Of a stretch of 64,000 nucleotides of DNA, positions 4,678-58,021 are shown one piece after another. Positions within the stretch are counted from its first letter, which is position 1. Each line of letters opens with the position of its first letter. The notes below the pieces were generated by a model. That model saw nothing but the letters and a program-made list of their open reading frames with translations. It did not search any database and was not told the DNA's origin. The stretch lies in NCBI GenBank assembly GCA_030549895.1, contig JAUQQM010000001.1, forward strand, positions 44,091-108,090, given 5' to 3'. The DNA comes from Patescibacteria group bacterium (GTDB taxonomy: Bacteria > Patescibacteriota > Minisyncoccia > UBA6257 > HR35). The position numbers and the translations under genes were made by a program.

Positions 4678-6741
4678 ATGGAAAAAGTCTATAACCATAA
4701 AAAAGTAGAAAAAGAAGTCTTAAAAATTTGGAGGAAAGAAAATTTAGGAAATCCAGAAAAAGAAAAAGGAAAAACTTTTTGTATTATCATGCCTCCTCCA
4801 AATGCTAATGGTAGACTCCATATGGGTCATGCTTTAATGCTCTCAATTCAAGACACAATTGTAAGATATCAAAGAATGAAGGGTAAAAAAGTTCTTTGGT
4901 TACCTGGTTTTGATCATGCTGGCTTTGAAACATTAGTTGTTTTTGAAAAAGAGTTAGAAAAAAAGGGATTAAGTAGATTTGAAATACCTAAAGAGAAGCT
5001 GTATAAGGAAATACTAAAATTTGCAAATCAGAAAAAGAAAGAAATAAGAAATCAGATGAAAGAATTAGGTATAAGTTGTGCTTGGAAATATGAAAAATAT
5101 ACTTTAGATAAAGACGTTGTAAAACTTGTACTTGAGACCTTTGAAAGACTAAAAAATGATGGATTAATTGAAAAAAGTGAAAGACTTGTAAATTGGTGTC
5201 CTAAGCATAAAACTGCTTTTTCTGATTTGGAGGTAATTTTTAAAGAAAAAAATTCATTTCTTTACTACATTAAGTATGGACCTTTTGAAGTAGCCACAGT
5301 AAGACCAGAAACAATTTTAGGAGATGTTGCTTTTGCTGTAAATCCTCAAGATGAAAGATATAAAAGTTACCTAAATAAAAAAGTAGAATTTGAACATCCT
5401 CTTACAGGAGAAAAAGTATCTTTTCCTGTAGTTTTTGACAAGAGAATTGATCCTAATTTTGGAACAGGAATTATAAAAGTAACTCCTGGTCATGATTTTT
5501 TTGACTTTGAACTTGCCAAAAAATTTAACCTTCCAATTATCCACATTTTTGATGAAAATGGAAAAATAAATCTCAAAGGATCAAAATATTATGGAATGAA
5601 TATTAAGGAAGCAAGAGAAGTAATAGTTAAAGATTTAGAGTTAAAAGGTCTTTTAATTAAAAAAGAGTCTTATCTTCATTCAGTGCCTGTATGCTATAAA
5701 TGCGAAAGTGAAATAGAACCAAGACCAATGGAGCAATGGTTCTTACTTTTAAACAAAAAGTTTAGACTACCTAAAAAGTTAAAGGAATTGATTAAAAAAG
5801 ATCATGCTTCTTTAAAAGAAATTGCTCTTGCTGGAGTAAAACTTATAAAATTTGAACCACCGCGATTTAAAAAAATATTAATCAATTGGCTAAAACAAAT
5901 AAAAGATTGGAATATTTCAAGACAAGTCGTTTGGGGCATTAAAATTCCTAACTCTGAAGATGTTTTCGATACTTGGTTTTCTTCTTCTCAATGGCCAGTA
6001 GTTACTCTTAAGTCTTTTGGAAATAATGTTTTTAAAAAATATTACCCAACAGATGTGATGGAAACTGGTTATGATATCTTACAATTTTGGGTCTCAAGAA
6101 TGATTTTTATGGGCCTTTATCTTACAGGAGATATACCTTTTAAAAAAGTTATCCTGCATGGAATTGTTAGAGACGAAAGAGGACAGAAAATGTCAAAATC
6201 AAAAGGAAATGTCATTGATCCAATAGATATTGTCCAAAAATATGGAGCTGATACGTTAAGACTTGGACTTTTAATGGGAAATGAAATGGGAAAAGATGTA
6301 ATTGTCTCTGAAAATAAATTTATTGGAGCTCAAAGATTTTTAAACAAAATTTGGAATGCAACAAGATTTTTAATTTTAAAAAGAAAAGAAATAGAAAAAT
6401 TAAACAGAAAATTAAAGGAGCCAAAGAAATTTTCTCAAGAAAGTAAAAAAATTTTAAAAGATTTTGAAAAATTTAAAAAAGAAATATTGACTCTTATGGA
6501 AAAAGATAAACTATCTTTAGCTTTAGAAAAACTTTATAAGTTCTTTTGGTTTACTTTTGCAGACCAGATAATTGAAAATACTAAGAAAAAAATAGCTCAA
6601 GGCGATTTTGAGGCTTATTTTGTTTGTGAAAGGCTTTTAAAAGAAGAGTTAAAACTTCTTCATCCATTTCTGCCATTTTTAACAGAATATTTATGGAAGA
6701 AAATTGGAAATAAAACTCTTCTTGCTCAACAGGGCCTATAG
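4678..6741 (+). CDS. valS: Valyl-tRNA synthetase (compact, 688 aa)
   Basis: True start is ATG 4678 (MEKVYNHKK...). PPPNANGRLHMGHAL and KMSKSKGN motifs. The upstream part of the ORF-track entry is the tRNA-Arg. Confidence 0.85.
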   Translation: MEKVYNHKKVEKEVLKIWRKENLGNPEKEKGKTFCIIMPPPNANGRLHMGHALMLSIQDTIVRYQRMKGKKVLWLPGFDHAGFETLVVFEKELEKKGLSRFEIPKEKLYKEILKFANQKKKEIRNQMKELGISCAWKYEKYTLDKDVVKLVLETFERLKNDGLIEKSERLVNWCPKHKTAFSDLEVIFKEKNSFLYYIKYGPFEVATVRPETILGDVAFAVNPQDERYKSYLNKKVEFEHPLTGEKVSFPVVFDKRIDPNFGTGIIKVTPGHDFFDFELAKKFNLPIIHIFDENGKINLKGSKYYGMNIKEAREVIVKDLELKGLLIKKESYLHSVPVCYKCESEIEPRPMEQWFLLLNKKFRLPKKLKELIKKDHASLKEIALAGVKLIKFEPPRFKKILINWLKQIKDWNISRQVVWGIKIPNSEDVFDTWFSSSQWPVVTLKSFGNNVFKKYYPTDVMETGYDILQFWVSRMIFMGLYLTGDIPFKKVILHGIVRDERGQKMSKSKGNVIDPIDIVQKYGADTLRLGLLMGNEMGKDVIVSENKFIGAQRFLNKIWNATRFLILKRKEIEKLNRKLKEPKKFSQESKKILKDFEKFKKEILTLMEKDKLSLALEKLYKFFWFTFADQIIENTKKKIAQGDFEAYFVCERLLKEELKLLHPFLPFLTEYLWKKIGNKTLLAQQGL

Positions 6742-6803
6742 TTTAACTGGTAAAACGCTGCTTTCGCTAAGCAGAGATCGGGGTTCAAATCCCCGTAGGT
6801 CCA
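6732..6803 (+). tRNA. tRNA-Ala (anticodon CGC). G3:U70 is present. It overlaps the last 10 nt of valS.
   Basis: Acceptor GGGCCTA/TAGGTCC with a G3:U70 wobble, anticodon stem CTGCT/AGCAG, loop TTCGCTA, T arm CGGGG-TTCAAAT-CCCCG, discriminator A. Confidence 0.75.
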
Positions 6804-6808
6804 CAAAA

Positions 6809-7483
6809 TTATTTTCTGAATTTTATTTCTTCTAAAAACTTTTTCGCTAAATCTTTACCACCTAAACCAAAAGCAAGGCCTCCAGCTAAAGCAAGCATAG
6901 CTACCATCCCTCCAATTATTATCTGAATTATATTTTGAGAAACACCAAGTTCATAAAAAGCTACTAAAAATCCAAAAACTACAATTGACCAGTAAATAAA
7001 GTTATAAATGACTTCACTTGACCAATGACCAGCACTCTTTATTGTTGCTTTGCCAAGTTTGCCCAAAACTTCACCTAAAAGTAAAGAAGCAACAAAAATA
7101 ACAAGAGCAACAACTACTTTTGGAATATAAAGAAATATTTCTTTAAGAAGATCTGTTGCTGCTTTAAGTCCTAAAGCATCAAAAGCAGCTAAAAAACCAA
7201 TTAAGATAAAAACCCAATAAACAATTGTTCCTAAAAATCTACCTGAGTTAAGAACATAACCAGCTCTTTCAAGATATCTCTCAAAGTTAAGCTTTCTTAA
7301 TGCTTCATCTATTTTCAAAAACTCAACAATTTTCCTTACAACCTCACCAACAGCATAACCAATTAAAATACTAATAAGAATAAAGACTATAGCTACAATA
7401 AGTCTTGGTAAAAAACCAAAAATACTATTCCAGACATTATAAAATGACTGGGTTATTAGATAGGCATAAGTTGTCTGGTCCAT
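6809..7483 (-). CDS. Membrane protein with repeated conserved TM helices (MscS-N-terminal / TM_helix-repeat-like)
   Basis: Five hydrophobic helices with recurring ...GxxxxxLxxxxxFLAAF... pattern. Family assignment tentative. Confidence 0.45.
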   Translation of the reverse strand: MDQTTYAYLITQSFYNVWNSIFGFLPRLIVAIVFILISILIGYAVGEVVRKIVEFLKIDEALRKLNFERYLERAGYVLNSGRFLGTIVYWVFILIGFLAAFDALGLKAATDLLKEIFLYIPKVVVALVIFVASLLLGEVLGKLGKATIKSAGHWSSEVIYNFIYWSIVVFGFLVAFYELGVSQNIIQIIIGGMVAMLALAGGLAFGLGGKDLAKKFLEEIKFRK

Positions 7484-7591
7484 GAAATTTAAGTCCGTCT
7501 TACTTTATTTAAAAGTTTGACGGACCTAAAAGAAATAATTTTAAAATTATAATTTAATATTAAAGAAAAATCAACTTAGTCTTAAGTTTTT

Positions 7592-7636
7592 TGTGGATAA
7601 AAACTCTTGACAAAAATAAAGCTTTAATAATATAAT
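7592..7636 (+). promoter_or_regulatory. Perfect DnaA box (TGTGGATAA, 7592-7600) immediately upstream of a sigma70-like promoter (TTGACA 7607-7612, 18 bp, TATAAT 7631-7636)
   Basis: Read directly. Confidence 0.5.
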
Positions 7637-7718
7637 TTTATATTATGGTTTATAGTTTGTTGAAGATTCAATTTGCTACTCTAAGGGGGGCTTAGGTTTT
7701 TTTAATTTTTTTAAAAAA

Positions 7719-7746
7719 ACCTAGGCCCCTAAAAGGGGCCTTTTTT
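7719..7746 (+). terminator. Intrinsic-terminator-like hairpin (GGCCCC-taaaa-GGGGCC plus a T6 run). It is preceded by a weaker hairpin (CTAAG-ggggg-CTTAG plus T7, 7681-7703) and ends 7 nt before the 7754 start codon.
   Basis: GC-rich 6-bp stem followed by tttttt. It lies about 85 nt downstream of the predicted -10. Confidence 0.55.
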
Positions 7747-7753
7747 AATTATT

Positions 7754-8356
7754 ATGGAAGAAGTAATTCTTAAAAAAACAATAGAGGTTTTCCAAGGAGC
7801 AAATTATAAAGAAGACTTTAATATTGAAAAACTAACAGAAGAAGATAAAGAATATTTTGGTTTTATTTTAAGTAATCTTGAAAACAAAAAATTAAAATTT
7901 TTAAACTCATCAGTCCAAAATTCAGATATCATAAAAGGAATAACGCTTAACTTAGGAGTTCATACTGTTTTTCATGAATATTTAGAAAAAAAACAAGATC
8001 CTCTTGAAGACGAATTTTCTAAAGTAACTTCACTTTTTATCCTTGAAAGTTCTCAAAATTTAAAAAAAGCCCTTGAAGAAAAAGAGATTAATCCAGAGAG
8101 TTTTCTAAAAAAAATAGCTTATGGATTCTTAGGAATTGTTTTAATTAGCTCCGACTTAAGACATGAAAGAGCAAAAATTGAAAGATCTATTACTTACCAG
8201 CTTTATTATGAATCAATTATTAAAAAATCCTTGTGGGGAATAGAAGTTGATGTGAAAGGATTTTATGAGGCTTTAAAAACATATAATTCTTTTTCAACTA
8301 AAAAAATAAAAAAACTGCTTAATGATGGTGGTTATTTTGTTTTAGAAAATATATAA
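7754..8356 (+). CDS. Hypothetical protein (200 aa)
   Basis: ORF only; no motif recognised. Its 3' end overlaps the convergent 8319..9065 gene by 38 nt. Confidence 0.45.
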   Translation: MEEVILKKTIEVFQGANYKEDFNIEKLTEEDKEYFGFILSNLENKKLKFLNSSVQNSDIIKGITLNLGVHTVFHEYLEKKQDPLEDEFSKVTSLFILESSQNLKKALEEKEINPESFLKKIAYGFLGIVLISSDLRHERAKIERSITYQLYYESIIKKSLWGIEVDVKGFYEALKTYNSFSTKKIKKLLNDGGYFVLENI

Positions 8357-10627: not shown

Positions 10628-11071
10628 ATGGAAGAATTAAAAGTAGAATCAATAAACTTAGAACCAATCGAAAAAAACTACCTGGAGGGAATAGGAAGAA
10701 GAAAAACGGCTGTCGCCAGAGTTAGGATTTATAAAAATCGATCGCAAGAGCCATTTAATATTTATATAAATGATGTTTACTATAAAAACTATTTTAAATC
10801 AATAGAGCTTGTAAAAATAGTTGATGCTCCATTAAGAAAATTAAAACTCCAAAACCTTTTAAAAGTGACAGTTAAAGTAAAAGGGGGAGGTTTTCGAGGA
10901 CAAGCAGAAGCTACAAGACTTGGACTGGCAAGAGCTATTGTCAAATTAATCCCTGAAGCTAGAACCAGACTTAAAAGAAGTGGGTTTTTAACTCGAGACC
11001 CAAGAGTAGTTGAAAGGAAAAAATATGGAAAGAAAAAAGCTAGAAAATCACCTCAATGGCACAAAAGATAA
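10628..11071 (+). CDS. rpsI: Ribosomal protein S9
   Basis: GGGFRGQAEA...RDPRVVERKKYGKKKARKSPQWHKR C-terminus. Confidence 0.9.
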   Translation: MEELKVESINLEPIEKNYLEGIGRRKTAVARVRIYKNRSQEPFNIYINDVYYKNYFKSIELVKIVDAPLRKLKLQNLLKVTVKVKGGGFRGQAEATRLGLARAIVKLIPEARTRLKRSGFLTRDPRVVERKKYGKKKARKSPQWHKR

Positions 11072-12114
11072 GACTAAGAACTATCTTTATAATTTTTATA
11101 ACTTTAAACCTCATAGGCCTTATAATTCTTTACTCAGCTTCAATAGCTCCTAGTCTTCATCTTTATAACGATCCTTATTTTTTTATAAAAAAGCAACTTT
11201 TATTTTTGTTTCTTTTAGCAATACCTGGTTTTTTGTTTTTTTTAATAGTTCCGGAAAAATTTTTAGAAAAACTTTCTTATATAATACTTTTAGCAAATCT
11301 AATTTTACTTGTCCTTGTCTTTTTTCCAGGAGTCTCTGAAGGTAAATTTAAAAGATGGATTACCGTAAGTAGTTTTTCTTTTCAACCAGCAGAATTTTGG
11401 AAATTTTCTTTTCTTTTGTTTTTTTCTTTTTATTTAACAAGAATAAACTTTAAAAAGTTTTTATTCTTTCTTTTTTTTCTTATTTTAGGTTTTATTCTAA
11501 TTCTTTTAGAGAAATCTTATAGTAATTCTTTTATTTTCTTGTGCATAGGAATTTCTTTAATTTTAAAATTACCAATTAAAAAAACAAGGTTAATTCTTCT
11601 CTTAGGGCCAGTTATTTTGATTTTACTTTTGATTGGAGCTATTTCAGCAAGTTATAGAATAGAAAGAATAAAAACATTTCTTGAAAAAAATGAAACAAGT
11701 ACTGGATTTTGGCAAATAGATCAGGCAAGAAATGCTTTTATTTCAGGTGGCCTATTTGGTAAAGGATTTGGTAATGGAAAAATAAAAACTTTTATTCCTC
11801 AAGCTTATAATGATGCTATCTTTACTGTTGTTGGTGAGGAATTAGGTTTTGTAGGTTCTTTTATAATTTTAGTCATTTTTTATGTGATGTTAAGTCTTAT
11901 GTTAAAAGTAAGTTTTAACTCAAACGATTTCCTTTCTCTTTATTCGTTTGGCCTTTTAGTTTGGGTTTTAATGCATCTTATTCTCCATTTAGTAACAGTT
12001 TTGGGTATTTTTATTCCTACAGGAATTAATTTTCCATTTTTTAGTTATGGAGGTTCTTCTTTAGTAAGTCTTTGGTGGGCTTTTGGAGTTCTTTTTAGAA
12101 AAAGTCTCTTTTAA
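11056..12114 (+). CDS. SEDS-family peptidoglycan polymerase (FtsW/RodA)
   Basis: Polytopic; conserved ...PTGINFPFFSYGGSSLV... motif. Confidence 0.8.
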   Translation: MAQKIRLRTIFIIFITLNLIGLIILYSASIAPSLHLYNDPYFFIKKQLLFLFLLAIPGFLFFLIVPEKFLEKLSYIILLANLILLVLVFFPGVSEGKFKRWITVSSFSFQPAEFWKFSFLLFFSFYLTRINFKKFLFFLFFLILGFILILLEKSYSNSFIFLCIGISLILKLPIKKTRLILLLGPVILILLLIGAISASYRIERIKTFLEKNETSTGFWQIDQARNAFISGGLFGKGFGNGKIKTFIPQAYNDAIFTVVGEELGFVGSFIILVIFYVMLSLMLKVSFNSNDFLSLYSFGLLVWVLMHLILHLVTVLGIFIPTGINFPFFSYGGSSLVSLWWAFGVLFRKSLF

Positions 12115-12912
12115 AAGATTTTGAGCTTCTTTCATAACTTCATCATATTTTTCTTTTAGAATATTTTTCAACAAATTTTTATCTTTATCAAAAAGATCTA
12201 AAACTAAAATAACATCAATATTTAAAAGCTCTTCTAATTTTTTTTGATCTAAGGTTAAAAGAATTCCTATTGGCCAAAGTCCCCAATGAGTAATAAGTTG
12301 AAAAAGATTCTCATCAAGTGGCCAATTCCAACTTGTTATTTTTATACCCCGACAGTTGCAAAATTTAAAAGCATCTAAAGTTATTTTTGTATTAGTTACA
12401 ATCCAAGGCACTAAATTACTTTGAGATTTTTCTTTTAAGTCTAAATATCTTGCCCAAAGAACTAAAATATGTTTTGTATCTGTTTTAATACCTTGAGTGT
12501 TATGAAATTTACACTCTATTATGTAATTTAAGTCTTGATTTTTTGCTAAAATATCTATCTCATGAATAGCGCATTTTCCTTCTAAAGTAACATTAAGCTT
12601 TGTTTGAAAACCATAAGCATTTAGAACTCTAGCAAAGTACTTTTCAAAAGGAAAACCAGTTGGTCCAAACCTTAAAATACCTTTTTTAAGATTGTATTTT
12701 GTAGCAAGAGTTGGATGGTTTATTTTTAAATAATCAAGAATTATTAAAAAAATTTCTTGACTTGATCTTGCTTGCAAAATTTTATCTTTTAAATTTTCAT
12801 AAATTTCTTCTGCTTCTTGGAGAGAAAAACCAAGTTTTGAAAGAGAGGTTAAAATTTTCTCTTTACTAAATTTTTCAAGCTCATTTGTTTGTTTGTAAAT
12901 TAATTTTTCCAT
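12061..12912 (-). CDS. ATP-cone domain fused to an Mrr-like (PD-(D/E)xK) restriction-endonuclease-fold domain
   Basis: N-terminus LIYKQTNELEKFSKEKILTSLSKLG is ATP-cone-like. Then FEKYFARVLNAYGF ... HEIDILAK ... YIIECKF, the Mrr_cat-type D...ExK arrangement. Confidence 0.55.
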   Translation of the reverse strand: MEKLIYKQTNELEKFSKEKILTSLSKLGFSLQEAEEIYENLKDKILQARSSQEIFLIILDYLKINHPTLATKYNLKKGILRFGPTGFPFEKYFARVLNAYGFQTKLNVTLEGKCAIHEIDILAKNQDLNYIIECKFHNTQGIKTDTKHILVLWARYLDLKEKSQSNLVPWIVTNTKITLDAFKFCNCRGIKITSWNWPLDENLFQLITHWGLWPIGILLTLDQKKLEELLNIDVILVLDLFDKDKNLLKNILKEKYDEVMKEAQNLLKETFSKKNSKSPPKTY

Positions 12913-13405
12913 AACTATACTTCAAAAATTCATAAAGTCCTATCAAAGTAAAAAATGTTAAAAATTTATCTAACCTTAAAAAATTAAAAACAAAAAAGGT
13001 CTGGCCTAAAATAAAAGAACTAAAAAGAAGGTTAAAGATTTTCTCTTTTTCGAGAATAAGAAAAATGAAAATAAAAATTAAAAACTCAACTAGATTTATA
13101 CCTGAAAAAGAAAGACCAAAAAAGGTGAAAATTTTTAATAGATCAAAATTCTGAGACCAATAAAAAATATGCAAAAGAAAGAAAAGAAAGCTTAAAATTA
13201 TCCCAAAAATTCCTTTTTCAAAGATAAAAATGAAAAGCAAATTTGAAAAAATGCTTTTTAAAATAAAGCTTATTTTGAAATTAAAATAAAAAGTACCTAC
13301 GAGGGTAAATAAAAAAACTAGAAAAGGAATTTTTTGAAAGTAATTAGCTAAAAGTAAAAATAAAAAAACCAGATCAAATATCAAGATTTTTGGCTTGAAT
13401 TGCAT
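12881..13405 (-). CDS. Polytopic hydrophobic membrane protein (174 aa), function unknown
   Basis: At least 5 TM helices. Overlaps gyrB 3' end by 32 nt and the ATP-cone gene 5' end by 32 nt. Confidence 0.45.
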   Translation of the reverse strand: MQFKPKILIFDLVFLFLLLANYFQKIPFLVFLFTLVGTFYFNFKISFILKSIFSNLLFIFIFEKGIFGIILSFLFFLLHIFYWSQNFDLLKIFTFFGLSFSGINLVEFLIFIFIFLILEKEKIFNLLFSSFILGQTFFVFNFLRLDKFLTFFTLIGLYEFLKYSYGKINLQTNK

Positions 13406-15266
13406 GTAATTCTATAAATTTCTTTCGAGGTTCAATTTCGTGACCCATTAAAATAGTAAAGTATTTCTCTGCTTCTTGAGCATCTTTTATGGTAGCTTTT
13501 TTAAGAATTCTTTTCTCAGGATTCATTGTTGTTTCCCAAAGTTCTTCAGGACTCATTTCTCCTAAACCTTTATATCTTTGAACCTCGAAGTTTTCTTTAA
13601 TTTCAGAAATTATTTTTTCTTTTTCTTCATCAGAATAAGCATATCTTACTTGGTTTTTAAATTTTATCTTATAAAGAGGAGGTTGGGCAATATAAATATG
13701 GCCAAACTCAATTAGTGGTCTTGTATATCTATAAAATAAAGTAAGAAGAAGAGTTTTAATATGATTTCCATCGATATCTGCATCAGTGGCAATTATAATT
13801 TTTGAATATCTTAAATTTTCTATCTTAAAATCTTTACCAAAACCTGTACCAAGAGCAATTATAAGATTTTTAATTTCTTCTGACTTTAAGATTTTATCTA
13901 AAGATGCTTTCTCGACATTTAAAATTTTTCCTCTTAAAGGAAGAACAGCTTGAAAGTGTCTGTCTCTTGCCTGTTTGGCTGAGCCACCAGCTGAATCACC
14001 TTCAACTATAAAAATTTCTCTTTCTTCTTTTTTTCTACTACTACAATCAGCTAACTTCCCTGGTAAGCCAAAACCTAAAATAGAACTTTTCTTTAAAACT
14101 GCTTCTCTAGCGCTTTTAGCTGCTATTCTTGCTTTTGCTGAAATTGAAATTTTATTTAAAATATACTTGGCATCAGTCTCATTTATTTCTAAAAATTCTT
14201 TAAATCTTTTATAAACAATACCCTCAACAATAGATCTTATCTCTGGGTTACCTAATTTTGACTTTGTCTGTCCTTCAAATTGAGGGTTAGGGATTTTAAC
14301 AGAAACAATTGCAATAATGCCTTCTCTTGTATCATCACCAGTGAAGTTTTCGTCTTTTTCTTTTAAAAATTTCTTTTCTCGAGCAAAATCATTTATAGCT
14401 TTAGTAAGGCCTGATCTAAAACCAGTAAGATGAGTTCCTCCTTCTTTATTTTTAATGTTGTTGGTAAAAGCTAGCTCAAGAGAGTCATTATCCTCTGTAT
14501 AAGCTAGAGCTAATTCAATAAAATTTTCGCCTTCTTTTTCGTTTACATAAAATACTTCTTTATGAATAGTTTTTTTAGAAAAAAGTAAATAATTTATAAA
14601 ACTTTTAATTCCATTTTCAAAATAAAAACAGTACTTCTTTAAATTTTTTCTTTCATCAAAAATGAAAAATCTTACACCTGGAGTCAAAAAAGCTTGCTCT
14701 CTAATATGAGAAATGATTCTTTCTAAATCAAATTCTATTTCTTTAAAAATTTTCTTGTCAGGTTTAAAAGTAACAACTGTTCCTGTTTTTTTTGTCTTTT
14801 CTAATTTTTTAACTGGACCAAGAGGTTTACCCTCTTTATATTGTTGAAACCAAACATAACCATCTCGATAAACCTTAGCTATTAAAGTCTCGGAAAGAGC
14901 ATTAACAACCGAAACTCCTACACCATGAAGTCCACCAGAAACTTTATAAACCTGATTAGAAAATTTTCCTCCAGCGTGAAGATAAGTCATAACAGTCTCT
15001 AGGGCTGTTTTTTTAGTTTTCTCATGAATATCAACTGGTATACCTCTACCATCATCTTCAACTTCAATGAAATTATCTGGTAAAAGTCTAATTTTTATGT
15101 TTTTTGCATAGCCAGCTAAAGCTTCATCTATAGAATTATCAACTACTTCCCAAATTAAATGGTGAAGCCCTTCAGGGCCAGTAGTTCCAATATACATTCC
15201 TGGTCTTTTTCTTACTGGCTCTAGACCTTCTAAAACCTCTATTTCTTTGGCAGTATATTCTGTCAT
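13374..15266 (-). CDS. gyrB: DNA gyrase subunit B (or topo IV ParE; type IIA topoisomerase ATPase subunit)
   Basis: GHKL ATPase EVVDNSIDEALAGY; TOPRIM EGDSAGGSAKQARDR; PLRGKILNVEKA. Confidence 0.9.
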   Translation of the reverse strand: MTEYTAKEIEVLEGLEPVRKRPGMYIGTTGPEGLHHLIWEVVDNSIDEALAGYAKNIKIRLLPDNFIEVEDDGRGIPVDIHEKTKKTALETVMTYLHAGGKFSNQVYKVSGGLHGVGVSVVNALSETLIAKVYRDGYVWFQQYKEGKPLGPVKKLEKTKKTGTVVTFKPDKKIFKEIEFDLERIISHIREQAFLTPGVRFFIFDERKNLKKYCFYFENGIKSFINYLLFSKKTIHKEVFYVNEKEGENFIELALAYTEDNDSLELAFTNNIKNKEGGTHLTGFRSGLTKAINDFAREKKFLKEKDENFTGDDTREGIIAIVSVKIPNPQFEGQTKSKLGNPEIRSIVEGIVYKRFKEFLEINETDAKYILNKISISAKARIAAKSAREAVLKKSSILGFGLPGKLADCSSRKKEEREIFIVEGDSAGGSAKQARDRHFQAVLPLRGKILNVEKASLDKILKSEEIKNLIIALGTGFGKDFKIENLRYSKIIIATDADIDGNHIKTLLLTLFYRYTRPLIEFGHIYIAQPPLYKIKFKNQVRYAYSDEEKEKIISEIKENFEVQRYKGLGEMSPEELWETTMNPEKRILKKATIKDAQEAEKYFTILMGHEIEPRKKFIELHAIQAKNLDI

Positions 15267-15267
15267 T

Positions 15268-16251
15268 TTAGATTAAATTCTTTGGGGAGTTAGTTAAAAA
15301 ACTTAATATATTCTCTAAAGAAGTTTTCAAAATTCTTTCTTTTGCTTCTTTACTATTAAATGCATTATGAGGTGAAATTAAAACATTTGGGTGCTTCATA
15401 AGAAGATGATTTTCAATTAAAGACTTTAATTTTTCTACTTTTTCTGAATTTTTTAAATATTCGAGCTCTTCTTTAAGAAGTTCTTCTTCTTCAAGAACAT
15501 CTAGAGCAGCACCAGCAATAATTCCATTTTCCAGGCCTAAAATCAGTGCCTCAGTCTCAATTACACTCCCTCGAGAGGTATTTACTATATAAACACCTTT
15601 TTTAACTATTTCAAGACAGTTTTTATTAAAAAGATGATAGGTATCTGGTGTTGCTGGAACATGAAAAGTTAAAATATCTGCTTCTTTTAAGATATCAAAA
15701 TAATCTTTGTAAATAACACCAATATCTTTTTTAATAAGGTCATAGGCAAGAACATTCATTCCAAAACATTTAGCTATTCTGCAAACTCTTTCTCCTATTT
15801 TCCCTGTACCAATTACTCCTAAAGTCTTTCCTTTAAGATCAGCACCTTCAAGTCCTTCAAAATCAAAAACTCCAGTTTCTTTTATTCTATCTATAGCAAA
15901 GTATATTTTCCTTAAAAGACTTATCATAAGACCAAAAGTATATTCTGCTACTGTATCTGAACCATAATCAGGTACATTACTTACAAGAATTTTATTTTTT
16001 TTGCAATAATCAATGTCTATATGGTCAAATCCTGTTGAGCGAGTGACAACAAGTTTTAAATTTTTGAATTTTGAAAGGTTTTCTTCGTTCAAGATTGAAT
16101 TAATAAAAACGCATAAAATTTGAGCATCGGGTAAATTTTTTAAATCTTGTAATTTTTCTTGAAAATAAAAAGTTTCTAAATCTTTATCTTTTAAATTTTC
16201 CTCAAAAAAACTCCTTTCTTTTTCATTAACTTCAAAAAAAGCTATTCTCAT
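15268..16251 (-). CDS. D-isomer-specific 2-hydroxyacid dehydrogenase (LdhA/SerA-like)
   Basis: NAD-binding GKTLGVIGTGKIGERV. True start MRIAFFEV at about 16251; the ORF-track N-terminal extension is the tRNA-Ile gene. Confidence 0.8.
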   Translation of the reverse strand: MRIAFFEVNEKERSFFEENLKDKDLETFYFQEKLQDLKNLPDAQILCVFINSILNEENLSKFKNLKLVVTRSTGFDHIDIDYCKKNKILVSNVPDYGSDTVAEYTFGLMISLLRKIYFAIDRIKETGVFDFEGLEGADLKGKTLGVIGTGKIGERVCRIAKCFGMNVLAYDLIKKDIGVIYKDYFDILKEADILTFHVPATPDTYHLFNKNCLEIVKKGVYIVNTSRGSVIETEALILGLENGIIAGAALDVLEEEELLKEELEYLKNSEKVEKLKSLIENHLLMKHPNVLISPHNAFNSKEAKERILKTSLENILSFLTNSPKNLI

Positions 16252-16253
16252 TG

Positions 16254-16325
16254 TGGGTGCGGGAGGGATTGAACCTCCGACCTCGGTCTTATCAGGACCG
16301 CGCTCTACCACTGAGCTACGCACCC
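16254..16325 (-). tRNA. tRNA-Ile (GAT)
   Basis: Reverse complement GGGTGCGTAGCTCAGTGGTAGAGCGCGGTCCTGATAAGACCGAGGTCGGAGGTTCAATCCCTCCCGCACCCA folds as a canonical cloverleaf. Confidence 0.9.
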
Positions 16326-16347
16326 AAAAAATAATTATATCATCTTT

Positions 16348-16530
16348 TTATTTTAGAAAATTTTTATACTCTAGGTCGTATGATTGGAGATTTTTTATTT
16401 CTTGAGGTGGGATTGTTACCTCATTAAAGAAATTAATAATCTTGTATAAAATAAAAACAAAACCAAAAACATAAATAACAAGAAAGACGATGGAAAGAAG
16501 GTTTATTAATTTTAATTTCAACTCTTTCAT
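16348..16530 (-). CDS. Small single-TM protein (60 aa)
   Basis: ORF translation with central hydrophobic helix. Overlaps upstream gene by 4 nt (operon). Confidence 0.35.
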   Translation of the reverse strand: MKELKLKLINLLSIVFLVIYVFGFVFILYKIINFFNEVTIPPQEIKNLQSYDLEYKNFLK

Positions 16531-17036
16531 TTTAAAATATAGCCAGTTGCTTCAATAATAAAATTACCCCCAGAAAAACTTATATTTTCTATTTTGATAA
16601 GATATCTACTTTCAAGCGCCTTTAAAAATTTAACAATATCATTCATGTTATTTTTAAGGTTATCAGTTTTTAAAAAAACAGAAAATTTTATTTTATTTTC
16701 ATTTTCTAAAATTTCATATTTTACTTCTGGTAAAAGATTATATAAAATAGCGATACTTGCTATTTTATTTTTAAAATCTAAAATATCATCCTGGTTAAAA
16801 AATAAATTTTTGATTTTTCTCATATCTTCTCCTATAGCTTGTCTTTCGTTTAAAAGTTGGTTGTAATGACTAATTTTTTGTTGATTATCAAAATTTTCTC
16901 TTTGAACAAGACTTATTTGTTGAGTAATTTTTTTTAGTTTATCTGACCAGTAAAAAATACTTAAAACAGTAAATAAAAGTAAAAATAAAAAAACTAATCC
17001 AGAGATCATCATTTTTTTTACTAAAATCTTTCTCAT
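16527..17036 (-). CDS. N-terminally membrane-anchored coiled-coil protein (PilO/PilN-like or divisome-like; uncertain)
   Basis: TM at residues 10-30 then coiled coil. No firm motif. Confidence 0.4.
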   Translation of the reverse strand: MRKILVKKMMISGLVFLFLLLFTVLSIFYWSDKLKKITQQISLVQRENFDNQQKISHYNQLLNERQAIGEDMRKIKNLFFNQDDILDFKNKIASIAILYNLLPEVKYEILENENKIKFSVFLKTDNLKNNMNDIVKFLKALESRYLIKIENISFSGGNFIIEATGYILK

Positions 17037-17247
17037 TAAGGAGCTAGCCTTTTTCTTCCTTTTCTTCTTCTTGATCTAAGAATTCTTCTACCTGAGGGCG
17101 TTGAAGATCTCTTTAAAAAACCACTTTTCCTTTTTCTTTTTAAATTTGTCCCCATATTTTCCACAACTTTTATTCAAAGTTATTCTTTTTTATGGCAAGA
17201 ACATTCTGTTTACAATTTGTTTATAATATTATAATTGATAAATTAAA
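17037..17247. other. Putative oriC segment upstream of dnaA: AT-rich unwinding element and a DnaA-box-like TTTTCCACA at about 17157. The dnaA-dnaN spacer also carries TGTAGATAA and TTATCAACA.
   Basis: Position relative to dnaA/dnaN; 8/9 matches to TTATCCACA. This is weak evidence in an AT-rich genome. Confidence 0.4.
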
Positions 17248-18618
17248 ATGGAGCGAGTTGATGAAAAATTACCCCAAGAAGAATTAGAAAAAATATGGAA
17301 AGAGGTTTTATCTGAGATAGAATTAGAAGTCTCTAAACCAGCTTTCAAGACATGGTTTACAAATACAACTTTAGTTGCTAAAAAAAATGAAAAATTAATA
17401 ATTGGAGTTCCTTCTAATTTTGTAAAAGAATGGCTTAAAAAAAGATTTTCAAATATTATTTTAAAACATCTTCGAAAGTTTTTCTCGGATATAAAAACTC
17501 TAGACTATACTGTAATTTCAAAACCAACAACCATAGAAACAATAACAAAAGATCAAATTCAATTTTCAACAAAATTAGAAATATTTCAAATTGATCCAAA
17601 AACAAATCTTAACAAAAAATATAAATTCTCAAATTTTGTTGTTGGTCCAAATAATGAGATAGCCTTTGCTGCAAGTCAGTCTGTTGTTCAGATGTTAGGA
17701 AAAAAATATAATCCCTTATTCATTTACGGTGGGGTTGGTTTAGGTAAGACTCATCTTCTTCAAGCTATAGGAAATGAAATTGTTGAAAAGTACAAAAACA
17801 TTAATGTAAAATATCTTACTTGTGATAAATTTGTTAGTGACCTAGTGAATTATATTAAAAATCAACAATTAGAAGAATTTAAAATTAAGTTTAAAAGTGT
17901 CGATGTTCTTTTAATTGATGATATTCATTTCCTTTCTCAAAAAGAAAGAGCTCAAATAGAACTTTTTCATATTTTTAATTTCCTTTATGAAAGAGAAAAA
18001 CAAATAGTATTTTCATCTGATAGACCCCCTTCGCTTATAAATGATATTGAAGAAAGACTAAGATCAAGATTTTCTGGAGGACTTATCGTTGATATTGAAC
18101 CACCTGATTATGAAACAAGAGTTGCAATTTTGAAAATGAAAATGGCCGAAAAAAATGGAAATTTACCAGATAAAATTCTCAGCATTATTGCTGAAAAAGT
18201 TCAAAAAAATGTAAGAGAACTTGAAGGAGTTTTAACTAAAGCTTTAATTTATTATTCAAAAAAACAAAATTTAACTTCAGAAGATTTAGAAAAAATTCTA
18301 AAAGACTATTATCAAGACAGTTATAGACTAGTTACGCCAACAAGAATAATTAATATTATTTCTTCTTTTTATGAAATAAATTCTAAATATCTTTTAGAAC
18401 CAACAAGGAAAAAAGAGTATGTAAAACCAAGGCAAATTTTAATGTATCTTTTAAGAGAGTTAACCAATCTTTCTTATCCAACAATTGGAGAAAAAGTTGG
18501 GGGAAGAGATCATACAACAGTCATGTACGCTTATGAGAAAATAAAAAAAGAAATTCAAAAAAACCAAGATCTAGCAAAAGAAATAGAAATATTAAAAGAA
18601 AGAATTTTAAGTAGTTAA
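17248..18618 (+). CDS. dnaA: Chromosomal replication initiator DnaA
   Basis: AAA+ Walker A GGVGLGKTHLL; C-terminal DNA-binding domain ...DHTTVMYAYEKI. Confidence 0.95.
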   Translation: MERVDEKLPQEELEKIWKEVLSEIELEVSKPAFKTWFTNTTLVAKKNEKLIIGVPSNFVKEWLKKRFSNIILKHLRKFFSDIKTLDYTVISKPTTIETITKDQIQFSTKLEIFQIDPKTNLNKKYKFSNFVVGPNNEIAFAASQSVVQMLGKKYNPLFIYGGVGLGKTHLLQAIGNEIVEKYKNINVKYLTCDKFVSDLVNYIKNQQLEEFKIKFKSVDVLLIDDIHFLSQKERAQIELFHIFNFLYEREKQIVFSSDRPPSLINDIEERLRSRFSGGLIVDIEPPDYETRVAILKMKMAEKNGNLPDKILSIIAEKVQKNVRELEGVLTKALIYYSKKQNLTSEDLEKILKDYYQDSYRLVTPTRIINIISSFYEINSKYLLEPTRKKEYVKPRQILMYLLRELTNLSYPTIGEKVGGRDHTTVMYAYEKIKKEIQKNQDLAKEIEILKERILSS

Positions 18619-41166: not shown

Positions 41167-42042
41167 ATGATTGACGTAATAATTCCAACAAGAAATAGAA
41201 CTAATAGTTTAAAGAAAGTTTTGCCTACTTATTTAAGGCAGAAATATTTAAATAAGATAATAATTATTGATGATGCCTCTGATGAAAATAATAGAAGAGA
41301 ACTTGAAAATTTATTAAAAATTGACAATAGAATTATTTATAAGAGATTTGAAAAACAAATATTTCTTCCTCAAGCAAGAAATGAAGGGATAAATCTTTCA
41401 ACAGCCGAATATATTTTTATGGGAGAAGATGATGTTTATTTAGAAGATAATCATCTTGAAATTCTGGTAGATTTAATGAATAAATATAACGCAGATTTAA
41501 TTGCTGGAAGGAGAATTTATATTAAAGAAAATCAAAACTTTGAAGAAGCTAAAAAAGAGGCTGATAAAGATAAAAGACCAATATTTACTCGATTTCCATT
41601 AGAAGGGTATTTTGAGAGATATTTTGAGGAAGAGATCTTAGATCCTTTATTTCTTCATTCAAATGTTTTAGTAAAAAGAAAGGTGTATGAAAATGTTTTA
41701 TATGATCCTTGGTATAGAGGAAATTCCTTTAGAGAAGATTTAGATTTTTTCCTTAGAGTTTCTGAGTTGGGGTTTAAAATGGTTTTAACTAATAAAACTT
41801 CTTGTTTTCATATAAAAGATTCGATTAATAAAAAAGGTGGGGCAAGAATGAAAAGATTGATTTATGAATACTATGTATGGAAAAATACATTTTATTGTTT
41901 TTACAAAAATAGAAGGATTTTAAGAAAAAAATTAAAGATAAAATTTCCCTTACTTCATGCTTTCTTATCTTTAATTTTGAGGTATCCTTACGCTTTATAT
42001 AGAAGAATAATATGGAAAATTCATCAAAGAAAAAACTATTAA
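41167..42042 (+). CDS. Family 2 glycosyltransferase
   Basis: IDVIIPTRNRTNSL...IIIIDDASDE. Confidence 0.7.
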   Translation: MIDVIIPTRNRTNSLKKVLPTYLRQKYLNKIIIIDDASDENNRRELENLLKIDNRIIYKRFEKQIFLPQARNEGINLSTAEYIFMGEDDVYLEDNHLEILVDLMNKYNADLIAGRRIYIKENQNFEEAKKEADKDKRPIFTRFPLEGYFERYFEEEILDPLFLHSNVLVKRKVYENVLYDPWYRGNSFREDLDFFLRVSELGFKMVLTNKTSCFHIKDSINKKGGARMKRLIYEYYVWKNTFYCFYKNRRILRKKLKIKFPLLHAFLSLILRYPYALYRRIIWKIHQRKNY

Positions 42043-43256
42043 TTTTTCTTCACAAGTTCCCTTATCCAGATAATGACAGCACTAAATTTAGGATTTTAAA
42101 TTCTGTAATTTTACCTCTCAGACAATATTTTGATATTAAAATTTTTGTAGTTACTTATGAAAATATAAAAAAAGAGGATTTGAATTTTCTAAAAAATATT
42201 GCTCCTTTAGAGTTTTATATTTTTCCTAAGTGGAGATTTTTTTTAAATATTTTATTAAACTTTTTTAGCTTTAGACCCTTTCAGACAGAAATGTTTTTTT
42301 TTAGAAATATTTTTTTGAAATTTCAAGAAGAAGCTAAAAAATTTGATGTAATATACATTCATACTGTCCGTTTAGGTAAATACATAGAAAAATTGTCTCC
42401 AGAATTAAGAGAAAAGATAATTCTTGATTTTAATGATTCAATTGCGATGCATTATTTAAATGGCTGGAAATATTATCCATGGCATTTAAAATTTGGAATA
42501 TTATTTGAGGGTTATAAATTATATTTTTATGAAAAGTTACTACTTAAAATTTTGAATAATTTTACGATAGTTTCAGAAGTAGATAAAGAATTTATTCTTA
42601 AAAATGTTAAAGAGGATTATATGAAAAATAAAAATTTTATTGTTACTTACATAAGCGCAAAAGTTAAAGACATCGAAAAATCAAATGTCGTAGATAATAA
42701 AAATGCCAGTAAATACATTTGCTTTATGGGTAATTTGAGATATTATCCTAATTGTGAGGGTATTATTCATTTTTTAAAGGATATTTGGCCATCCATTAAA
42801 AGAGAGTTTAAAGATTTAGAGTTTTTAATAATCGGCGATGTTGATAATTCCTTAAAAAAGAAATTTAAAAAAATAGATGGAGTTAAATTTTTAGGTTTTG
42901 TAGCTGACCCTACTTTAATAATTTTGAAAAGTTTAGCCTTTGTCTCACCGGTTAGAATTGGGGCTGGTTTACAAGGAAAAATTGTTGAAGCTATGGTATT
43001 GGGTCAAATTGTTATTTGTTATTATTTGAATATAAAAAAAGTGAATGGATTTGAGGATAGAAAAAATATTATGATATGTAAAGATTTTAACCCCACCGAA
43101 TGGGTAGAAGCTTTAAAATTTATTATAAATAATCGAGAAGAAGCAGAAAAAATTAAAAAAATTGCTAAAAATTTAGCTTTAACTGAATTTACTCCCCAAA
43201 AGGTTTGGGAAAAATACTTTTTTATTTTTAAAAACGTCTCTAATTATGAAGAATAA
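42012..43256 (+). CDS. Glycosyltransferase, group-1-like (GT-B)
   Basis: C-terminal half ...FMGNLRYYPNCEG...GAGLQGKIVEAMVLGQIV resembles GT4 donor-binding domain. Confidence 0.55.
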   Translation: MENSSKKKLLIFLHKFPYPDNDSTKFRILNSVILPLRQYFDIKIFVVTYENIKKEDLNFLKNIAPLEFYIFPKWRFFLNILLNFFSFRPFQTEMFFFRNIFLKFQEEAKKFDVIYIHTVRLGKYIEKLSPELREKIILDFNDSIAMHYLNGWKYYPWHLKFGILFEGYKLYFYEKLLLKILNNFTIVSEVDKEFILKNVKEDYMKNKNFIVTYISAKVKDIEKSNVVDNKNASKYICFMGNLRYYPNCEGIIHFLKDIWPSIKREFKDLEFLIIGDVDNSLKKKFKKIDGVKFLGFVADPTLIILKSLAFVSPVRIGAGLQGKIVEAMVLGQIVICYYLNIKKVNGFEDRKNIMICKDFNPTEWVEALKFIINNREEAEKIKKIAKNLALTEFTPQKVWEKYFFIFKNVSNYEE

Positions 43257-56126: not shown

Positions 56127-58021
56127 TAAAAAGGTATGAAAAAAACCCAATTTTAAGCCCTGATTTTAAATCATCTTGGGAAGCATATGCAGTTTTTAAC
56201 CCTTGTCCAGTAATTTTTAAAGGAAAAATTTATCTTTTATATAGAGCTCTTTCTTTGCCTCACTATCATCATTTAGCAAGAATGGTTCTTTCTGTCTCAG
56301 ATATAGGAATTTGTGAAAGTAAAGATGGAATTAATTTTAAAAAAAGAAGAAAATTTATTTGGCCAGAGTATGAATGGGAAAAATTTGGTTGCGAAGATCC
56401 AAGAATTGTTGAGTTCGAAGGTAACTTTTACATTTTTTATACAGCTCTTTCTGTTTATCCTTTCTCAAGTGAAGGAATTAAAGTTGGTTTAGCAATCTCT
56501 AAGGATTTGAAAAGTATAAAAGAAAAACATCTTATTAGTCCTTTTAATGCAAAAGCAATGAGTCTTTTTCCGGAAAGAATAGATGGAAAAATTTGGGCAA
56601 TTCTTACAGTAAACACTGATAGACCCCCGGTTGAAATTTGTCTTTGGCAAGGAGAAAGAATTGAAGATTTATGGAATGAGAAAAAATGGATAGAGTGGTA
56701 TAAAGAGCACAAGAATTGGGCTCTTAATCTTAAAAGAAAAGACAACGACTACATAGAAGTTGGCTCTCCTCCACTAAAGACTCCTTATGGTTGGTTACTT
56801 TTTTTCAGCTATATTAAAGATTATTTTTCTCCCTCAAGAGTTTTTACTATCGAAGCCATGCTTTTAGATTTAAAAGATCCAAGAAAAATTATAAGCAGAA
56901 CAAAATTTCCTCTTCTTTTTCCTTTGCAGCATTACGAAAGGATAGGCATTGTAAACAATGTTGTTTTTCCTTCAGGAGCAATTTTAAAAGGAAAAAAGAT
57001 TTATCTTTACTACGGAGCAGCGGATACTGTTTGTGCTCTTGCTTTTGTTGATTTTGAAGAATTAATTAAAAAGTTAACCGAGAAAAAAGAATTTCAAGTT
57101 ATAAAGTTAGAGAAACCAATAATTTCACCAACAGAACTTCCCTGGGAAAGTAAAGCAACATTTAATCCTGGAGTAATTTATCTAGAAGGCAAATTTCATA
57201 TTCTTTACCGGGCAATGAGCCAAGATAACACCTCTGTTTTTGGTTATGCTCAAAGTGATGATGGTCTACATATTACTTATAGATCAAAAGAGCCAGTTTA
57301 TATTCCAAGAGAGGACTTTGAAAAGAAAATTATCCCCAAAGGAAATAGTGGTTGTGAAGATCCACGAATCACCTACATAAAAGAAGATAAAAAAATTTAT
57401 CTTCTTTATACAGCTTTTGATGGTCTTAACCCTCCAAAAGTTGCTTTTTCTTCAATTAAAGTTGATGATTTTCTTTCAAAAAATTGGAACTGGGAAAAAC
57501 CAAAAGTAATTTCTTTTCCTAATTTAGATGATAAAGATGCCTGTTTGTTTCCGGAGAAAATTAATGGTAAATATTGGATTGTCCATCGCGTTGGTGATGA
57601 TATAGATATTACTTGTGTAGATAATTTAGAATTTAAAGATTATTTAGGCGAGATAAGATGGATTTGGCCAAGACCTGGATTTTGGGATAGCAGAAAAGTA
57701 GGAGCTGGTGCTCCACCAATAAAGACTCCTTATGGTTGGCTTTTGATTTATCATGGAGTAGACGAGAAAGGAGTTTATCGAGTTGGCTTTATCCTTACTG
57801 ATCTTAAGAATCCTTTGAAAATTATTTCCAGAAGTTACGAGCCATTTATGGAACCAGATAAAGATTGGGAAATTAAAGGATTAGTTGATAATGTAGTTTT
57901 TCCTTGTGGGATGGTTATGCTTAAAGATAAAATTTTTATTTACTACGGAGGAGCAGATAAGGTTGTTGGTGTTGCTTTAACATCTTTAAAAGATGTTTTA
58001 GCTCATTTAGGGATTAAATGA
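56123..58021 (+). CDS. Tandem double-GH130-domain protein (beta-mannoside phosphorylase-like)
   Basis: Two repeats of ...FNP..V...GK...LYRA...GCEDPRI......Y..YTA...PPIKTPYGWLL.YHGV... Confidence 0.7.
   Translation: MIKRYEKNPILSPDFKSSWEAYAVFNPCPVIFKGKIYLLYRALSLPHYHHLARMVLSVSDIGICESKDGINFKKRRKFIWPEYEWEKFGCEDPRIVEFEGNFYIFYTALSVYPFSSEGIKVGLAISKDLKSIKEKHLISPFNAKAMSLFPERIDGKIWAILTVNTDRPPVEICLWQGERIEDLWNEKKWIEWYKEHKNWALNLKRKDNDYIEVGSPPLKTPYGWLLFFSYIKDYFSPSRVFTIEAMLLDLKDPRKIISRTKFPLLFPLQHYERIGIVNNVVFPSGAILKGKKIYLYYGAADTVCALAFVDFEELIKKLTEKKEFQVIKLEKPIISPTELPWESKATFNPGVIYLEGKFHILYRAMSQDNTSVFGYAQSDDGLHITYRSKEPVYIPREDFEKKIIPKGNSGCEDPRITYIKEDKKIYLLYTAFDGLNPPKVAFSSIKVDDFLSKNWNWEKPKVISFPNLDDKDACLFPEKINGKYWIVHRVGDDIDITCVDNLEFKDYLGEIRWIWPRPGFWDSRKVGAGAPPIKTPYGWLLIYHGVDEKGVYRVGFILTDLKNPLKIISRSYEPFMEPDKDWEIKGLVDNVVFPCGMVMLKDKIFIYYGGADKVVGVALTSLKDVLAHLGIK

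Follow-up and report, generated by a model that had tools for sequence, protein, structure and literature searches.

Three overlapping genes on the minus strand of a patescibacterial contig raise the question of whether a small membrane protein and a nuclease, encoded directly behind a topoisomerase gene, form a functional module or are neighbors by lineage history. The genes lie in a 64,000-nt stretch of contig JAUQQM010000001.1 (Patescibacteria group bacterium, assembly GCA_030549895.1, positions 44,091 to 108,090); the whole of this stretch is called the window here, and all coordinates are positions within it. The three genes are gyrB (13374-15266, minus strand; 630 aa), an open reading frame (ORF) for a polytopic membrane protein (12881-13405, minus strand; 174 aa), and a gene for a 283-aa protein (12061-12912, minus strand) that combines an ATP-cone, a PD-(D/E)xK nuclease core, and an AF1548-like C-terminal domain. 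A preliminary description of the sequence had reported these genes with a 32-nt overlap at each junction, and the ORF list agrees exactly: the 3' end of gyrB overlaps the start of the membrane ORF at 13374-13405, and the 3' end of the membrane ORF overlaps the start of the nuclease gene at 12881-12912 (both minus strand). Our analysis points to a stand-alone chromosomal PD-(D/E)xK nuclease, putatively gated by adenine nucleotides, in a compact and origin-proximal string of housekeeping genes, a reading that we favor with moderate confidence.

The 283-aa protein is divided into an ATP-cone domain (residues 1 to 80; 12673-12912, minus strand), a PD-(D/E)xK core of the Mrr_cat type (residues 83 to 196; 12325-12666, minus strand), and an AF1548-like C-terminal helical domain (residues 200 to 270; 12103-12315, minus strand). 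In Pfam searches with the window protein alone, all three families were matched under their gathering scores (i.e., ATP-cone at residues 5 to 70, E = 0.005; Mrr_cat at residues 86 to 153, E = 0.004; AF1548-like_C at residues 214 to 267, E = 0.004). The profile evidence becomes solid through the homologs, 104 (ATP-cone), 103 (Mrr_cat), and 87 (AF1548-like_C) of 117 of which matched at E ≤ 1e-3, with best scores of 2e-11 for PF03477 and 4e-15 for PF22357. A phmmer search of the Protein Data Bank (PDB) returned the Archaeoglobus fulgidus protein AF1548 (1Y88; E = 2e-32 over residues 93-266), which the family profile matched at E = 7e-57. The AlphaFold2 (AF2) model of the protein, built with an alignment of homologs, was of high confidence (predicted local distance difference test [pLDDT] score, 95; predicted template modeling score [pTM], 0.90) and consists of a beta-hairpin and four helices (residues 4 to 80), followed by an alpha/beta core and a helical C-terminal domain. 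The top Foldseek match of this model was again 1Y88 (E = 2.5e-15; target-normalized template modeling score, 0.79), followed by the PD-(D/E)xK domains of MspJI, Cdn1, NucS, Card1, Can2, and Hjc. Given the support from the homologs, the 1Y88 match, and the AF2 model, we regard the domain calls as solid and assign the protein to the family defined by PF03477, PF04471, and PF22357. The fusion of an ATP-cone to an Mrr-type nuclease core that the preliminary description had proposed is therefore real, while the third domain, which resembles that of AF1548, had been missed.

The catalytic residues of the nuclease core are intact. At six positions (E90, E118, D120, E133, K135, and N174), none of the 117 sequences, including that of the window, has a substitution, and these positions contain a complete E...D...ExK catalytic motif. 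D120, E133, and K135 align with D38, E51, and K53 of AF1548, which were predicted to be catalytic in a protein predicted to be a restriction-type endonuclease (2007 GOS paper, PMC1821046). The AF1548-like C-terminal domain presumably binds nucleic acid.

Conservation also extends to the N-terminal domain. Among the candidate ligand-contact residues of the cone, K7 is present in 117 of 117 sequences, K19 in 115 of 117, and T/S51, Y73, and K/R76 in more than 95% of them. We take K7, K19, T/S51, Y73, and K76 to occupy the positions of K9, K21, T55, and the C-terminal basic/aromatic patch of Escherichia coli NrdA. The NrdR ATP-cone 9a6n_B was aligned by Foldseek over 81 columns (root-mean-square deviation, 3.3), and PDB entries for NrdD and NrdR were matched by the family profile in their ATP-cone segments (E = 0.007 to 0.02). 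Within the close clade of the window, the cone is 65% identical, a degree of conservation no lower than that of the nuclease core, and it is therefore under purifying selection there.

How widely is this architecture distributed? The protein database contains 260 homologs at E ≤ 1e-3, and the 119 non-self sequences among the matches listed had E values of 2e-104 to 3e-40. Their identities to the window protein range from 32 to 65% (mostly 32 to 46% outside the close clade), and the alignments are collinear over the full length, with query coverage of mostly 83 to 98%. NCBI lists several of these homologs under the name "ATP cone domain-containing protein," with precomputed assignments to PF03477, PF04471, and PF22357. 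A scan of one genome per species detected the family in at least 589 genomes, the carriers of which include Patescibacteria, DPANN, Hadesarchaea, Nitrososphaera, Bacteroidota, Chlamydiae, Nitrospirae, and metagenome-assembled genomes (MAGs) labeled Gammaproteobacteria. By these searches, the ATP-cone/nuclease fusion is a widespread and already catalogued architecture. The earlier suggestion that the protein is uncharacterized holds in the sense that full-text literature searching found no functional study of the family, the one pertinent paper being that with the 2007 GOS prediction for AF1548, but the fusion itself can no longer be called undescribed, as it bears an NCBI name and occurs in genomes of at least 589 species.

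Comparison with known systems helped place the protein. AF1548 (Mrr_cat and AF1548-like_C) is homologous over window residues 93 to 266 and has the same D...ExK motif; it is a structural-genomics entry of 199 aa that lacks the N-terminal ATP-cone. The members of the NCBI "ATP cone domain-containing protein" family share all three domains and the invariant residues with the window protein. Relative to that family, the clade of the window is distinguished by a diverged cone hairpin (G10 to N), by a short C-terminal tail encoded antisense to ftsW, and by its clade-specific setting behind gyrB and the orphan membrane ORF. The ATP-cones of NrdR, NrdA, and NrdD have the same fold, namely, a beta-hairpin with a Lys residue followed by a four-helix bundle. 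The window cone differs from those of NrdR and the ribonucleotide reductases in that it is fused to a nuclease, rather than to a reductase or a zinc-ribbon repressor, and in that the KR dyad is reduced to K. Card1, Can2, and Cdn1 follow a shared logic in which an N-terminal small-molecule sensor is joined to a PD-(D/E)xK domain, and their nuclease domains are alike (Foldseek E values of 5e-4 to 2e-2); however, the sensor of the window protein is an ATP-cone and not a CARF domain, its putative ligand is ATP/dATP and not a second messenger, and there is no context of clustered regularly interspaced short palindromic repeats (CRISPR) or of a cyclic-oligonucleotide-based antiphage signaling system (CBASS). 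The type IV enzymes Mrr, MspJI, and AspBHI share the Mrr_cat-type core and the solitary gene without a methyltransferase. In contrast to them, the window protein has no Mrr_N or SRA-like reader, and its family is nearly absent from mobile elements (2 plasmids and 2 viral contigs with a partial core).

Is the combination of gyrB, membrane ORF, and nuclease conserved? The trio occurs in about five lineages (i.e., those of the window, L004, L006, L008/L090, and L093), among which gyrB is 77 to 78% identical and the nuclease is 54 to 65% identical. The genes ftsW, rpsI, and rplM are syntenic in the trio loci, as are dnaA and dnaN where the contig reaches them. Since these flanking housekeeping genes are equally syntenic, the adjacency of the trio carries no signal beyond the background synteny. 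In a neighborhood survey of 80 genomes, neither gyrB within 6 kb nor a homolog of the membrane ORF was found at any of the 80 other nuclease loci, and small polytopic neighbors on the same strand were present at only 4 of 73 loci. Polytopic membrane proteins were also considered as general partners of the nuclease and rejected: their excess near the nuclease (15.8% versus 9.5%; p = 0.036) was driven by the DUF2079 protein of one lineage.

The membrane ORF is a real and functional gene, as judged from its same-position orthologs with conserved polar residues. Four relatives contain ORFs of 172 to 178 aa in the same slot, which are 38 to 44% identical; the motif TFYFNFK is invariant among the orthologs (L004, L006, and L008), and other polar residues are conserved. 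Its AF2 model is all helical, with eight helices; the pLDDT of that model was 48 (from a three-sequence alignment), too low to support a structural comparison. No match to the membrane ORF was found in Pfam, NCBIfam, PADLOC, or PHROGs. A word-index search returned only a 99%-identical copy, a full HMMER search of 1.84 billion representative proteins yielded only two matches, and a metagenome pattern scan detected only two loci, both of the clade of the window. On the basis of these searches, the membrane ORF is classed as an orphan whose occurrence is limited to about five closely related lineages of Patescibacteria. Its pairing with the nuclease, in which the preliminary description saw a potential module, is by the comparison of loci likewise a quirk of one small lineage and not a conserved module.

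A sister lineage, whose gyrB is 62 to 63% identical, is informative about the slot itself. There, the gene order is KhpA, gyrB, a polytopic ORF of 193 to 197 aa, and then ClpP, with no nuclease. The polytopic ORF of this lineage (L091:5868-6449 and L096:4371-4964) overlaps gyrB by 32 nt, and its ATG arises from conserved (H/Y)-A codons. We considered this ORF as a diverged homolog of the 174-aa ORF and rejected it (BLASTP, E = 2.6; hhalign probability, 0.5%), and we treat it as a positional analog only. Since it occupies the same gyrB-overlapping slot in a genome segment without the nuclease, the slot for a small membrane ORF is tied to gyrB and not to the nuclease. The position behind gyrB could be a recurrent site for fast-evolving membrane genes, or the resemblance could reflect convergence.

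Do the overlaps mark a functional unit? The ATG of the membrane ORF arises from the H-A codons (CAT GCA) of the conserved gyrB C terminus. In the orthologs, the gyrB/membrane ORF overlap is 23 to 32 nt long (32 nt in L004; 23 nt in L006 and L008), and the membrane ORF/nuclease overlap is 20 to 26 nt long (26 nt in L004; 20 nt in L006 and L008). Given this variation, the equal pair of 32-nt overlaps in the window is a coincidence. Across the 64-kb window, 20 of 46 pairs of same-strand neighboring ORFs overlap; in 12 of these pairs the shared stretch is 10 nt or longer, and in 4 it is 20 nt or longer. The long overlaps include two on the plus strand, within 41167-43256 (31 nt) and 58018-59668 (26 nt). 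Thus, long overlaps are a general packing style of this genome and no mark of a functional module. The start codons of the membrane ORF and the nuclease are supported by the alignment of M1 across all orthologs and by the first strand of the ATP-cone, which begins at residue 4 of the AF2 model.

The string of minus-strand genes is longer than the three genes that were originally flagged. A D-2-hydroxyacid dehydrogenase gene (15268-16251, minus strand; Pfam 2-Hacid_dh_C, 8e-48) ends 1 nt before the start of gyrB and is probably on the same transcript. The 5' end of the longest possible dehydrogenase ORF (15268-16323) is occupied by a tRNA-Ile (GAT) gene (16253-16325, minus strand), and the true start of the dehydrogenase is therefore placed at the inner ATG at 16251. 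On the other side, the nuclease gene converges with an ftsW/rodA family gene (11056-12114, plus strand; Pfam FTSW_RODA_SPOVE, 8e-65), and the 3' tail of the former and the 3' end of the latter overlap by 54 nt (12061-12114, both strands). The corresponding C-terminal tail of the nuclease (residues ~270 to 283) had lower pLDDT values (54 to 72) and is not present in the ortholog P0002. No terminator-like site was found on the minus strand between the genes in a scan of 11900-17300, although that scan performed no better on the sequence than on shuffles (3 sites versus 1.8 ± 1.4 in shuffled sequences), and the promoter scan of the same region was likewise not above expectation (32 versus 23.7 ± 5.0). 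A repeat search of the region yielded AT-rich low-complexity words only. Given the tight, overlapping arrangement of genes in this genome, the string is probably cotranscribed and translationally coupled. The cotranslation that the preliminary description deduced from the overlaps is plausible. The guanine-plus-cytosine (G+C) content of the window is ~27%, and dnaA and dnaN are located just upstream on the other strand. Together with the relatives of gyrB, these two genes indicate an origin-proximal region of a Patescibacteria (Parcubacteria-like) genome.

Outside the clade of the window, the neighbors of the nuclease vary by lineage. No neighbor is common to the whole family, the largest neighbor cluster being found at 12 of 83 loci; the adjacent genes are housekeeping or stress genes in stable, lineage-specific synteny. 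MnmA and MltG/YceG are neighbors in genomes of the Kaiserbacteria and Nomurabacteria types. In Levyibacteria-type genomes, a DUF2079 membrane protein is encoded immediately upstream and a convergent DinB (IMS) polymerase gene lies downstream (nine loci; L019, L038, L043, L052, L067, L069, L078, L087, and L088). Several MAGs with this DUF2079/DinB synteny are labeled "uncultured Gammaproteobacteria," and these labels may be unreliable. Copper-resistance genes (i.e., those for a copper ATPase and a multicopper oxidase) stand beside the nuclease at some other loci.

Another setting was found in Bacteroidota. At 12 of the 24 loci from this phylum, a beta-CASP metallo-beta-lactamase nuclease gene (Lactamase_B, Beta-Casp, and RMMBL domains) adjoins the gene for the ATP-cone nuclease (L026, L028, L033, L034, L044, L056, L066, L071, L072, L081, L084, and L086; about 5980-8250 in each). 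In 10 of the 12, it is the next gene downstream and is read in the same direction, so that its start abuts or overlaps the 3' end of the ATP-cone nuclease gene (median distance, -1 nt). On the upstream side, these loci have Usp genes in tandem and a gene for the ribosome hibernation factor HPF/RaiA. If the family has a genuine conserved partner and a characteristic physiological context, this beta-CASP/Usp/HPF setting is the best candidate for both.

We also searched for links to defense and mobile DNA. The nuclease had no significant match among the defense models of PADLOC-DB v2; the best (CARF_PDDEXK, E = 5e-4) covered 56 residues and the nuclease motif only. No DNA methyltransferase partner was found in the window neighborhood, and none formed a recurrent cluster in the surveyed loci, where the sole methyltransferase was a UbiE-like small-molecule enzyme. 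Neither the window protein nor the 117 homologs contain an Mrr_N or SRA-like reader domain for modified DNA. The family was found in 0 of 50,697 phage genomes and in 2 of 72,556 plasmids, and 2.9 million viral contigs gave two matches, both weak and limited to the nuclease core, at 27% identity (L098 and L099 from IMG/VR). The two plasmid carriers are NZ_CP021236.1 (Pontibacter actiniarum) and NZ_LK031773.1 (Criblamydia sequanensis), and the proteins are annotated as "ATP cone domain-containing protein." Since mobile DNA is nearly empty of the family, the settings are those of housekeeping or stress genes, and the PADLOC matches are weak, a solitary nuclease of the type IV or abortive-infection kind is a minority view.

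How might the protein work? The gene order of the string is tRNA-Ile, 2-hydroxyacid dehydrogenase, gyrB, orphan membrane protein, and solitary nuclease, with the genes probably transcribed together. The nuclease would be a stand-alone enzyme that is inherited vertically with the chromosome. Its N-terminal ATP-cone would bind ATP or dATP and thereby turn the nuclease activity on or off. The most likely basis of this switch would be nucleotide-dependent oligomerization, by analogy with the action of ATP-cones in ribonucleotide reductases and NrdR. The C-terminal helical domain may hold the nucleic acid substrate (DNA or RNA). The role of the enzyme is most likely the turnover or processing of nucleic acids tied to the energy or nucleotide state, such as salvage during stress, as suggested by the hibernation/stress context in Bacteroidota and by the abundance of the family in salvage-dependent Patescibacteria and DPANN.

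Three other explanations were weighed against this one. One holds that the membrane protein (as a sensor or anchor) and the ATP-cone nuclease (as an executor) constitute a dedicated surveillance or defense module that is placed beside gyrB for a functional reason, essentially as the preliminary description proposed. Overlaps at both junctions (32 nt in the window and 20 to 32 nt in the orthologs), a gene order kept in about five lineages, and a functional membrane ORF with conserved polar residues are what such a module would exhibit. However, the membrane ORF, with its two matches among 1.84e9 proteins, is restricted to the clade, and neither it nor gyrB accompanies the nuclease at any of the 80 other loci of the family; within the clade, synteny is just as strong for the flanking housekeeping genes, and overlaps are the norm in this genome. 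Additionally, the different polytopic ORF of the sister lineage overlaps gyrB by the same 32 nt and is followed by ClpP without any nuclease. With no real PADLOC match beyond weak local hits to the motif, no methyltransferase, and the near absence of the family from phages and plasmids, the defense aspect of the proposal is not sustained either, and we consider the two-gene module very improbable.

According to another explanation, the nuclease is an antiphage enzyme in its own right, which would act either as a solitary restriction enzyme of the type IV kind or through abortive infection triggered by a perturbation of the ATP/dATP pool. The Mrr_cat-type core without an adjacent DNA methyltransferase, the presence of the MspJI and AspBHI nuclease domains and of the ligand-gated defense nucleases Card1, Can2, and Cdn1 among the top Foldseek matches, and the sensor-plus-nuclease layout, which resembles that of the CARF nucleases and is echoed by the weak PADLOC match to CARF_PDDEXK, are compatible with such a function. 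Against it, no known defense family was matched above noise; the phage, plasmid, and viral contig counts (0/50,697, 2/72,556, and 2 weak partial matches) are minimal; the neighbors are housekeeping or stress genes in stable lineage-specific synteny rather than defense islands; no modification reader (SRA or Mrr_N) is present; and the nuclease is kept in very small genomes. An antiphage role therefore seems unlikely to us. Just as unlikely, or slightly more so, is a role in DNA repair or recombination, in which a structure-specific enzyme like Hjc or NucS/EndoMS would be tuned to the availability of dNTPs and ATP and hence to the replication state. Foldseek did match NucS/EndoMS (2vld and 5gke) and Hjc (1ob8), some members of the family are annotated as "Holliday junction resolvase-like" by the Joint Genome Institute (JGI), a convergent DinB polymerase gene is present in the nine Levyibacteria-type loci, and the nuclease is near gyrB, dnaA, and dnaN in the clade of the window. 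These structural similarities (E = 1e-3 to 1e-2), however, are those of the generic PD-(D/E)xK fold, and repair genes are neighbors in one lineage only, with no repair partner across the family.

Several observations weigh against our preferred reading of a stand-alone, nucleotide-gated housekeeping nuclease. The cone is divergent in the clade of the window: its ATP-cone score is 17.8 bits (cutoff, 25.8), the near-universal G10 of the cone hairpin is replaced by N, and across the family the KRDG motif has lost its conserved arginine. The cone segment of the window protein alone retrieved no ATP-cone from the PDB with phmmer, and the assignment of this domain therefore derives from family-level evidence. 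The binding of ATP/dATP, the gating, the substrate, and the physiological role are all inferred. An Mrr-like nuclease that stands alone, with no methyltransferase, also has the look of type IV restriction enzymes. In each of the five lineages with the membrane ORF, this ORF overlaps both of its neighbors, and there may be a clade-specific functional link between the membrane protein and its neighbors. Finally, the neighborhood survey covered 80 genomes of at least 589, with ORFs predicted by a crude caller.

To our knowledge, the understanding of ATP-cones is limited to their regulatory role in ribonucleotide reductases and NrdR. If the proposed gating is true, ATP/dATP allostery would extend to the cleavage of nucleic acids by a broadly distributed nuclease, and the family would offer a handle on how nucleic acid turnover is coupled to the nucleotide state in ultrasmall, salvage-dependent bacteria and archaea. 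A broader and considerably more speculative proposal, which we advance tentatively and regard as doubtful in its entirety, is that the family represents the first example of a nuclease under the control of an ATP-cone, i.e., a metabolite-gated enzyme that would read the ATP/dATP state and, upon a collapse of the energy or nucleotide pools, degrade or process nucleic acid (e.g., for dormancy, nucleotide salvage, or abortive infection). Such an enzyme would matter particularly to salvage-dependent Patescibacteria and DPANN; it would be wired to the HPF/Usp/beta-CASP hibernation or stress clusters in Bacteroidota and may be cotranslated with an orphan membrane protein behind gyrB in the clade of the window. 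The locus itself is of little weight, as it represents a catalogued family in a clade-specific synteny block, and the family together with its beta-CASP partner in Bacteroidota is a better target than the window locus. The question is open to direct testing, since Flavobacterium, Arenibacter, Psychroflexus, and Winogradskyella are carriers that can be cultivated; in addition, the core structure of the family is solved and its model is of high confidence.

The first gene of the trio is gyrB with certainty, as the preliminary description had it. The product matches TIGR01059 of NCBIfam with 911 bits (cutoff, 882) and contains the Pfam domains HATPase_c, DNA_gyraseB, Toprim, and DNA_gyraseB_C, which together identify it as DNA gyrase subunit B. 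Its closest named relatives are from Giovannonibacteria, Azambacteria, and Paceibacterota (Parcubacteria), with about 60 to 62% identity. The gyrB gene of the window is free of inteins, while those of its closest relatives, with ORFs of 969, 989, and 1141 aa (the last being cut by the contig end), carry them. Intein_splicing was detected in the gyrB genes of L006 (2552-5521) and P0130, and the third intein-bearing gyrB is at L008:2-3427. Elsewhere in the window, the segment 36000-44000 combines a very low G+C content (23 to 27%) with a strongly positive GC skew (0.28 to 0.39), and it coincides with seven codirectional plus-strand ORFs of about 290 to 415 aa each.

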